Position numbers and translations under genes: made by a program
Part shown: positions 1,554-3,539 of the stretch, one piece after another
Layout of the letters: each line of letters begins with the position of its first letter
Position numbering within the stretch: position 1 is the first letter of the stretch
Assembly (NCBI GenBank): GCA_017499595.2
Contig: CM039009.1
Coordinates: forward strand, 558,001-622,000
DNA length: 64,000 bases
From: Psilocybe cubensis
Lineage: Eukaryota
Direction: 5' to 3'
Notes under the pieces: model-generated
Database searches by the model: none
Seen by the model: only the letters and a program-made list of their open reading frames with translations
Told to the model about the DNA's origin: nothing

Positions 1554-3539
1554 TCATGAATCAAGGCCGAAAATCTTGGTTTTCTGGGAGTCAATGACTT
1601 CCCATTGAAGCACGAGGTTGTTTCGTCCCAAAGCAGGCACGCTGCATATCCAGCACACTTGTCCATCCTTCCCAAGGGCAGATACATCGTCACCTATACT
1701 CTCTGTTCTATTCCATTGGGCTATGATCTCGTCACCAACCTTCACACCAGGCGATATGCTGACAAGGCTGTTGCTTACATCCGTCTCTGGACCTGGCAGG
1801 TCAAGTGCTGGGTTGATAAGATTTACGACGAGGGCAGCGTCCTCGGAAACCGGAATGCGATCAATAACCTTAAGGCCTTTAATCGCGACAGACTTGCTAT
1901 TGTACACAGATATGCGTTGAGTATACAGATGCTTGACTGTTTTGTTGTAGAATCCAGATTCAGAAGTTATCTTCTCTTGTGGATGATACGTGACTCGAAT
2001 GGATGGATCGACTCTAAATAAAAAGATAATTGTCAATTGAGCCATGCTCCATTAGATGTATGCATACCCTAGTGGACAAGAAAAAGTTTCCAGGGAAGCA
2101 ACTCCAGGAATTCTAGAGTGAGAAATGAAGCTTTGGTCAACGTAAACATTGCTAGGTCCAGGAAGGAATGTGTATTCTGAAGAATTTAATATCTTTGCCT
2201 GGGTCACGTAAGTAATGTTAGTATAGAAAACATATCAAACGATGAATCCCTAACCTGTAGATGGACTTGCGTGCTTCCTTGAGGGATGCATATCCACGAA
2301 ATCTCAGCCTCCAAAAGCAATTCTGCAATTGTCACACCATGCTCTTCTTGGTCGCTTGGGACAGTAGTCAGCCCCGGCACAAGGAAAGTAGCATTGACAT
2401 TTCCTTTGGATGTGACTGTAGAAACATCAAATTCCATCATGTCCTCGTCTTCATCCTCGTCTGAATCAGGCTCGGCTGGTGTGGATACCACCTGACGGCG
2501 AGCGGCTTTACCCCCAGTACATTTACGCGCTGTCTGCCTCGTGCGCTTGGAAGACGGCATCTCATATGTAATTTTCCAAGGTTTGAGCTCGGGAAGCTCA
2601 ACGCCAAACGTAGGCTGAGAGGTTTCCAGCGTAATTGGTACATTCTCCCACTTCTGTTAGAGCGAAACAAATCAGTATCATAAATCAATGTACTACATGT
2701 CCAATGCATACTTCACCAGTTCTTTGATTAATGGCGGCTTTGTAGGTCACCTGTACAGGGGCTCCCTTTGTCTGCATATCCACTCTAATATCATATCCAG
2801 CATGCCAGTATGAGTTCGATACAGCTTAAAAGAGAAAAATTAAATAACGATCGCATGGTAGGCTGTCCTTGTAGATTACATACCATAGACCAAAATAATC
2901 TCCAGCTCGGCATCAATTTCCGTAAATATCGTCAAAGTAACTTTTGTGCGCAATTTTTTGTTTTCGACTTGCATCTCTAACCTTTGAACCTCTTGATCCA
3001 TCTGTATTTCCAAGTCCTTGATATCTTTTCTGAGCTCCATTATCTTCAAGTCCCATTTTTCTTCGGTGTTGTCATAGACATCCATAGCTTCACCAAGCTT
3101 AGATATGTCCATATGTTCCACGGAGATATTGCCCATGTATTTCTCAACGGCTTGCTTAGCCTTTATGCACCGTTGTAGCGCGTTCTCGGCCCTAGCCTTC
3201 CTGTCATCAAGGTCTCTAAACAGCGGCGACGAGATTTCAGGTCGAGCAATGGGTGCTTTGGCCACTGCAACACCCTGAATCACAGCAGGGCCTCGTCCCT
3301 CAACCCTATACGCAATAATAGTAAGCAATAAGCTACACAGAAATGATGGCGATCCACCTAAGAGAATCGTAATCCACGCAATTGGGTAAGTTGGATATTG
3401 TAATTTTGGTTTGTCCAGCAGCAGCATTAACATTAAAAGACCGAGTGACGTGAGCGCGGCTCGTATACAGATTAATGTTGGTAATCTTGCTATCCTTGAT
3501 AGAATCAATGGATAACTCGTGAAGGGTAATTACATGCAT
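1554..3539 (-). CDS. DUF4140/DUF4139 (mucoidy inhibitor A-like) protein, paralog 1; contains a histone H3-tail-like segment
   Basis: Six exons splice in frame: MHVITLHELSIDSIKDSKITNINLYTSRAHVTR.. / VEGRGPAVIQGV + coiled coil / AVSNSYWHAGYDIRVDM..INQRTGE / KWENVPITLETSQPTFG..NATFLVPGLTTVPSD / NSSEYTFLPGPSNVYVD..CPLG / VDPSIRVTY..KVIDRIPVSED..LQWEV. These motifs are typical of DUF4140+DUF4139 proteins (family recognised from memory). Confidence 0.85.

Follow-up and report, generated by a model that had tools for sequence, protein, structure and literature searches.

The 64,000-nucleotide stretch of Psilocybe cubensis DNA analysed here (assembly GCA_017499595.2, contig CM039009.1, positions 558,001 to 622,000 of the forward strand; hereafter the window, numbered from its first letter) contains two paralogous genes for proteins of the DUF4139/DUF4140 family, and each protein carries, at the same place in one loop, a peptide resembling the tail of a different core histone: H3 in paralog 1 and H4 in paralog 2. 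The genes and features concerned are the following.

1554..3539, minus strand: paralog 1, a DUF4140 + DUF4139 protein of 568 amino acids, six exons with GT..AG introns
join(3539..3358, 3305..2884, 2824..2712, 2653..2255, 2198..2068, 2013..1554), minus strand: coding sequence of paralog 1, an open frame of 568 codons
2255..2653, minus strand: exon 4 of paralog 1, 133 codons, spanning the end of one beta sheet, a disordered loop and the next strands
2489..2545, minus strand: H3-tail-like peptide RTRQTARKCTGGKAARRQV, protein residues 276-294 (from translation and PDB match)
2495..2515, minus strand: conserved core GGKAARR, corresponding to H3 G12-K18, residues 286-292 (from the alignment of orthologs and paralogs)
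2426..2467, minus strand: acidic run DSDEDEDEDMMEFD, residues 302-315, just C-terminal to the mimic (from translation and alignments)
29883..31852, minus strand: paralog 2, 559 amino acids, six exons, about 28 kb from paralog 1
join(31852..31659, 31604..31183, 31120..31008, 30940..30575, 30525..30395, 30336..29883), minus strand: coding sequence of paralog 2
30776..30832, minus strand: peptide SGRGLGRGGAKRHRKIIRS resembling the H4 tail, residues 280-298, at the corresponding loop position of paralog 2; the acidic run EDDEDFDPDE comes next

The product of paralog 1 is 100% identical to, and of equal length with, the database protein P0003, annotated as 'Protein F37C4.5 [Psilocybe cubensis]'. 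P0003 matches Pfam DUF4139 (PF13598) with 142.7 bits (cut-off 31.8, E 1.6e-41) and, at its N-terminus, DUF4140 (PF13600) with 73.6 bits (cut-off 27), and with both domains above the cut-off it is a full-length member of the family whose proteins are variously labelled TIGR02231-type 'MuiA', 'mucoidy inhibitor A' or F37C4.5. The protein is not a histone and shows no sign of a histone fold: among the four Pfam families that P0003 matched at E ≤ 1, there was no histone family (e.g. PF00125). The gene model is supported by contigs from runs X1 and X2, which belong to one study and are only presumed to be RNA, in which all five predicted introns were skipped at the predicted borders; the joints flanking exon 4 were 2653>2712 and 2197>2254 (cut +1). 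The X1 and X2 contigs listed leave 2406-2533 uncovered, and most codons of the mimic are thus without a direct RNA view. Next to the 5' end of paralog 1 (3450-3700 and upstream), these runs contain a transcript with a contig depth of about 780-810, against about 9 for paralog 1; the reading frame at 3684-4073 (minus strand) had no Pfam match.

Translation of the minus strand over 2426-2545 gives RTRQTARKCTGGKAARRQV followed by VSTPAEPDSDEDEDEDMMEFD, the 19 codons from R to V occupying exactly bases 2489-2545. When exon 4 (133 amino acids) was compared with all PDB chains using phmmer, 134 matches were obtained at E ≤ 10, and all 60 among the matches listed were H3 tails, H3 variants or H3-derived peptides. 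In the alignments to PDB H3 peptides (RTKQTARKSTGGKAPRKQL), 14 of 18 residues are identical to H3 R2-Q19, with the differences K4R, S10C, P16A and K18R, and L20V beyond them, and the alignments stop at about H3 residue 25-28. An earlier reading of this DNA, made from the sequence without database searches, had reported this peptide with the same coordinates, identity and first four replacements, and had placed it inside a DUF4139 paralog; translation, the PDB alignment and the Pfam match agree with it throughout. The best E-value was 0.0012, which, scaled to a six-frame search of the 64-kb window, would be of order 1, and the significance of this match by itself is marginal. Between strains, the only difference inside 2489-2545 was 2528 C>G in one DNA run of another strain, a GCG>GCC change that by our own codon reading is synonymous (Ala to Ala). 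The same contig has six small deletions, 24 bases in total, at 1690-1767, which fall in a variable C-terminal loop of paralog 1. There is also an in-frame ATG at 2558-2560 (minus strand), five codons upstream of the mimic (MPSSKRTRQ...); an internal start there is unlikely, because the orthologs have no methionine at this place.

When the window was searched with exon 4 by tblastn, the only further match of note lay at 30575-30937 (E 1e-37, 52% identity); the other four had E > 3. This is exon 4 of paralog 2, which is 100% identical to P0159, a protein of the same length as the gene model. Its peptide SGRGLGRGGAKRHRKIIRS shares 14 of 19 residues with H4 ~6-24, including an exact GGAKRHRK (H4 13-20), and H4 accounted for 58 of the 60 PDB matches listed, with a best E-value of 0.00016. 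Copies of H3 and H4 at one loop position in two paralogs cannot be due to chance.

The AlphaFold2 model of P0003 (79 sequences; mean predicted local distance difference test score, pLDDT, 86.4; predicted template modelling score 0.68) begins with a beta domain, continues into a long helical hairpin (88-173) and ends in further beta domains. The pLDDT falls below 50 at 252-260, 276-299 and 312-324, so that the loop around the mimic (276-294) is predicted to lack order and to be accessible. The mimic is also, as the sequence-only reading held, internal (residues 276-294 of 568) and without a free N-terminus. Foldseek found nothing in the PDB at E ≤ 0.001; its best matches, ribophorin I / Ost1, were set aside (E 2e-3, TM-score only 0.13). 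A wide structure search, in which the beta domains were not searched separately, returned only the coiled-coil hairpin (82-175, Z about 10), which we regard as helical-hairpin noise. In the Atlas, the structure search gave TM-scores of 0.72-0.75 over 459-508 residues to DUF4139 clusters of basidiomycetes and Bacteroidota, and the feature search beyond the DUF4139 family reached scores of 0.75-0.76, under the level of a lead.

Searches with the full-length protein found 178 proteins at E ≤ 1e-20 (120 among the matches listed), and a profile-free search of 1.84 billion representatives gave 543 matches at E ≤ 0.001 (150 among the matches listed). The organism names among the matches listed were all those of mushroom-forming basidiomycetes, metagenome rows being nameless. 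From the loops of 120 named or full-length proteins, H4-like ones were recognized in P. cubensis, P. cyanescens, two Gymnopilus species, Hebeloma, Phlegmacium, Crepidotus, Crassisporium and Agrocybe pediades, and H3-like ones in P. cubensis, P. cyanescens, Agrocybe pediades (RTRQTARMATGGKAARR), Galerina, two Gymnopilus species and Flammula. In Galerina, the two Gymnopilus species and Flammula only the ..GGKA[AP]RK.. or GGKRARK core of the H3-like loop remains. The Agrocybe pediades loop (protein P0006) has a methionine at the K9 position. Conventional paralogs from species with histone-like loops (e.g. P0198) carry loops unrelated to these. Ten further cluster representatives included six H3/H4-like fragments and, apart from these, three named agaric proteins with loops resembling the ribosomal P-stalk or of other kinds.

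The PDB searches detected histone-tail likeness independently in five proteins from four species. For the H4-type protein of P. cyanescens, 59 of the 60 matches listed were H4, with 17 of 19 residues identical, including the unbroken 12-residue GGAKRHRKILRD; the corresponding counts were 56 of 60 for Crepidotus (H4) and 57 of 60 for the Agrocybe H3-type protein (H3; best E 0.019). For Galerina P0160, which has only a seven-residue core, none of the three PDB matches was a histone.

Within these loops, conservation is concentrated in the core. In the H4-type proteins (n=9 full-length), the mean pairwise identity was 0.85 for core 13-21 (GGAKRHRKI), 0.53 for the body of the protein and 0.39 for the rest of the loop; in the H3-type (n=8), it was 0.71 for core 12-18 (GGKAARR; 0.81 without the degenerate Galerina P0005), 0.49 for the body, 0.18 for the rest of the loop and 0.26 for the part matching H3 2-11. 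By column, G13, G14, R17, R19 and I21 are present in 9/9 H4-type loops, H18 in 8/9 and K16 in 7/9; position 20 is K in four and R in five, and K12 is K in only one. Among H3-type loops, R8, G13 and R17 are present in 8/8 and G12, K14 and A15 in 7/8, whereas at the position of K9 a lysine occurs only in P. cubensis, an arginine in two loops, a methionine in one and other residues in the remaining four. Replacement of K by R is common at positions that are modified in histones (K4R and K18R in the P. cubensis H3-type loop, K8R and K12R in H4-type loops). The constraint thus falls on a glycine-flanked basic core in which, judging from these alignments, charge is retained where lysine is not, and the frequent K-to-R replacement would suggest charge-dependent binding rather than lysine modification. 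The core is always followed by an acidic run with an aromatic residue, D-E-D-D-L-D-Y/F in H4-type loops, whose counterpart in paralog 1 is DSDEDEDEDMMEFD.

Since the core is kept in related mushrooms, the likeness appears to have been selected rather than to have arisen by chance. The peptide might instead be a neutral relic or a coincidence, that is, a basic glycine-rich linker or the decaying piece of a captured histone gene: the marginal single-exon E-value would fit such an origin, as would the generally basic and variable linkers of the family, the degenerate Galerina P0005 and the absence of a histone match for P0160. Against this, the paralog has its H4 mimic at the same site, the cores exceed the folded domains in conservation (in nine and eight proteins), P. 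cyanescens has an exact 12-residue H4 run and the only difference between strains within the mimic is synonymous. We consider a relic or chance origin very improbable, and from the paralog's H4 tail, the PDB matches of other species and the core conservation above that of the folded domains we exclude chance likeness at the level of sequence.

The distribution of lysines bears on a second possibility, that the loop is a modifiable pseudo-histone, i.e. a substrate or ligand of a K9 methyltransferase and chromodomain, a K14 acetylase and deacetylases. In P. cubensis both K9 and K14 (K283 and K288 of the protein) stand in the ARK.TGGKA context, K14 is retained in seven of eight H3-type loops, the methionine at the K9 position in Agrocybe may be counted on the same side, and the short ARKS/ARKT mimics of G9a and SETDB1 are, in the portions of the literature available, known substrates and chromodomain ligands. 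However, K9 is retained in only one of the eight loops and the part matching H3 2-11 is poorly conserved (identity 0.26, as above); K4, K18, K8 and K12 are arginine, K20 is R in five of nine H4-type loops and P16 is A in four of the seven loops that keep the H3 core. P16 is part of the G-K-x-P preference of Gcn5. We regard this alternative as unlikely. The sequence-only reading had proposed the ARKxTGGKA core as the element to be conserved and had stressed K9, its enzymes and chromodomain readers: the TGGKA half of the core is indeed kept (G12, K14 and A15 in 7/8) but K9 is not, and the emphasis on K9 fits P. cubensis alone.

A third possibility follows from the arginines and the acidic run: the loop could be a chromatin tether or an internal switch, its basic core binding the acidic patch of H2A-H2B or, in the manner of ISWI AutoN, its own acidic run. 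Every H4-type loop has R17 and R19 (9/9) and every H3-type loop has R8 and R17 (8/8), the acidic aromatic run always follows the core, and AutoN is a precedent for an internal motif resembling the H4 basic patch in a non-histone protein, as in paralog 2 (PMC5305211, PMC5976439, in the parts of these papers accessible to us). As described there, AutoN consists of a few residues, belongs to a chromatin remodeler and acts on that remodeler's own ATPase, whereas the loops described here match H4 at 14-17 of 19 positions and are borne by a scaffold for which no chromatin domain is known. Pfam turned up no domain for binding DNA or chromatin, the loop is predicted by AlphaFold2 to be disordered with no docking site, and an arginine anchor would need less identity to the histone tails than is observed. 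This reading, too, has a low probability in our view.

Our preferred interpretation, held tentatively and drawn from sequence comparison, is that the paralog 1 peptide is a selected, charge-dependent docking or competitor mimic of the unmodified H3 tail, with a karyopherin of the Kap123 / importin-4 class as the best candidate partner. The peptide would sit on a disordered loop of about 60 residues borne by the DUF4139/DUF4140 scaffold of beta domains and coiled-coil hairpin, and the sister paralog would present an H4-tail mimic at the homologous place. The basic core with its flanking glycines, H3 12-18 (GGKA[AP]R[KR]) and H4 13-21 (GGAKRHR[KR]I), is conserved; the modifiable lysines K4, K9 and K18 of H3 and K8, K12 and K20 of H4 are not. 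The loop would thus dock on, or compete for, a normal binder of these segments of the two histone tails; an H3/H4 import karyopherin may be such a protein, in which case the loop would either give its own protein entry to the nucleus or rival new histones as import cargo. In the available text of the Kap123 study (PMC5677370), the only ordered residues of the bound H3 nuclear localization signal (NLS) are 12-17 and 21-26, with K14 in pocket 1, where small residues G13 and A15 are needed, and those of H4 are 13-20 (GGAKRHRK), with contacts to K16, R17 and R19. A histone-type import or competitor peptide is preferred here because the residues ordered on Kap123 (H3 12-17, H4 13-20) are the cores conserved in the mushroom loops. 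The consensus given in the same part of that study is small-K-small, at least six residues and a second K. The first element is found as G287-K288-A289 in paralog 1 and as G-K-A/R in seven of eight H3-type loops. For the family as a whole, the legend of S5 Fig of PMC6638966, the part of that source available, lists C. elegans F37C4.5 as pulled down directly with the nuclear demethylase NMAD-1, which hints weakly at a nuclear setting.

Several observations weigh against the import interpretation. Paralog 1 has no K between K288 and the end of the loop, where the Kap123 consensus has its second lysine, and hence no equivalent of K23; the mimics are internal loops, the Kap123-bound signals (in the accessible part of PMC5677370) N-terminal tails, and the likeness between them is one of sequence. 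K16, a contact residue, is M in two of nine H4-type loops. An import signal requires neither 14 of 18 identical residues nor the RTRQTAR part. Other factors grip these cores too: Gcn5-type acetylases at H3 K14 and, at the H4 basic patch, binders of the ISWI, Dot1 and Sir3 types and the nucleosome acidic patch. Judged by sequence, all of them fit no less well than an importin. The scaffold's fold had no PDB match at E ≤ 0.001 that would tell of its function. Import also does not explain the copies of another conserved tail that occupy the same loop in related proteins.

These copies are near-exact versions of the C-terminal tail of the ribosomal P-stalk (EESDDDMGFGLFD-type). We scored 263 family proteins against references taken from family loops, not from histones, using the maximum of 789 shuffles as the threshold. 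Against the EESDDEMGFGLFD reference from P0175, 23 of the 263 were P-stalk-like (P0170, P0171, P0175, P0183, P0189, P0215, P0238, P0252 and 15 others), while 15 exceeded the threshold with the H4-like reference and seven with the H3-like one. P0160, P0005 and P0011 fell under the threshold, and P0088, over it, looks like a glycine-rich false positive. Pfam Ribosomal_60s (PF00428) matches six of 79 members. For P0175 (Hypsizygus), the top nine of 16 PDB matches were P1/P2/P0 C-tails, with weak E-values (0.05-0.6); its loop combines KTKQTARK with the P-stalk motif, yet the protein lies outside the clade with histone-like loops. Other loops include arginine-serine repeats (P0213, P0221, P0229, P0235, P0263) and YSPTSP-like sequences resembling the tail heptad of RNA polymerase II (P0224, P0243); as candidates for additional mimics they were set aside because of their low complexity.

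The variety of conserved tails suggests a fourth alternative, in which the loop is a decoy or sponge that displays H4, H3 or P-stalk tails to soak up or sense proteins that target them, for example ribosome-inactivating proteins, whether of the fungus itself or foreign, or histone-tail-binding effectors. The 23 P-stalk-like, 15 H4-like and seven H3-like proteins above the shuffle maximum, the PF00428 matches, the PDB matches of P0175 and the joint occurrence of both motifs in its loop outside the histone clade all argue for it, and the P-stalk tail is, in the source portions available, a docking site for ricin- and Shiga-type toxins, translation factors and Gcn2. Pfam, however, found no immune or toxin domain on the family proteins, the neighbouring genes are of unrelated housekeeping types and the three kinds of motif may have separate functions; we consider a decoy role on its own improbable. 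A broader reading of the same comparisons, possible though rather unlikely as a whole, would make the agaric DUF4139 loop an evolvable display site for copies of the tails most conserved among eukaryotes (H4, H3 and the P-stalk C-terminus): the H3 and H4 paralogs would together imitate the new H3-H4 pair as pseudo-cargo or decoy, and thereby tune histone import and tail-binding enzymes, or soak up or sense tail-targeting proteins.

The loop types do not follow the phylogeny of the proteins that bear them. In a tree of 44 proteins, the 18 with histone-like loops formed one clade (Shimodaira-Hasegawa-like approximate likelihood ratio test support 100, with a long stem), and in a tree of 24 proteins from which the loop columns had been left out this clade had a support of 100/100. 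Within the clade, the paralogs of the 24-protein tree group by genus and not by loop type: the Psilocybe H3 pair with the Psilocybe H4 pair (100/99), Agrocybe H3 with Agrocybe H4 (100/100) and the Gymnopilus H3-type with the Gymnopilus H4-type (95/90). At least five changes of loop type are required on this tree, and a single clade of the eight H3-type proteins, a group defined after the tree was seen, was rejected at a cost of 190 log-likelihood units (approximately unbiased test, p 1.7e-5). The early-branching members of the clade are H4-type, and the Flammula sequence GGKRARKIL appears intermediate between GGAKRHRKIL and GGKAARK. The conflict between loops and tree would be accounted for either by repeated origin of H3 loops from H4 loops or by gene conversion that homogenised the folded parts while sparing the loops. 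The changes K4R, P16A and K18R occur in both P. cubensis and Agrocybe and speak for a single origin of the two loops, which would imply gene conversion in at least that pair.

Most known histone mimics are viral or are motifs of four to six residues in chromatin enzymes. Among the systems to which the mushroom loops can be compared are G9a (PMC2175347), SETDB1, the ARKS motif of SARS-CoV-2 ORF8 and influenza NS1, all of which, in the available parts of these sources, likewise present an H3-like peptide in a disordered part of a protein with no histone fold. As described there, these mimics comprise about 4-6 residues around a modifiable lysine and are substrates or reader ligands; the peptide described here differs in having 19 residues, conserved over 12-18, with K9 unconserved and with an H4 mimic in the paralog. 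The H3 N-terminal mimicry proteins (H3TMs, e.g. VRK1; PMC8166343) are cellular proteins that copy the start of H3, as here, but according to the accessible part of that report they need a free N-terminus after removal of Met as well as R2 and K4, whereas the copy in paralog 1 is internal, beginning at residue 276 of 568, and has R in place of K4. Compared with the DUF4139/DUF4140 family at large, the histone-like loop is confined to one clade of agaric mushroom proteins, and literature searches on the family and on histone mimicry returned no description of histone-tail copies in the DUF4139 family.

What sets this case apart is a free-living fungus with 19-residue copies of both the H3 and the H4 tail on paralogous scaffolds, a core constrained more strongly than the folded protein and a ribosomal-stalk tail in the same loop of relatives. 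It was unexpected that H3 and H4 copies come as a pair, that an unmodified core is under constraint, that loops and tree conflict and that P-stalk copies occur. The loops may serve as a natural and testable system for the parts of the tails that are read unmodified, H3 G12-K18 and H4 G13-I21, and may provide a starting point for working out what the widespread DUF4139 family does. Their history would show either repeated convergence on histone sequence or selection against gene conversion.

In the neighbourhood, a Pfam scan of 20 long reading frames, nine of them with matches, gave no link to histones or import. The matches were Methyltransf_23, a formamidase, MutL_C, UCH, two pieces of a mannosyltransferase, a weak CCCH finger and an F-box. 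The Methyltransf_23-type frame lies at 5116-5697 (minus strand), about 1.6 kb upstream of paralog 1, with E 8e-6, just below the Pfam cut-off. The frames at 17366-20513, 34576-35481, 36191-37849 and 59300-61237 account for the formamidase, the MutL C-terminal domain, the ubiquitin C-terminal hydrolase (family C12), the alpha-mannosyltransferase and the F-box.

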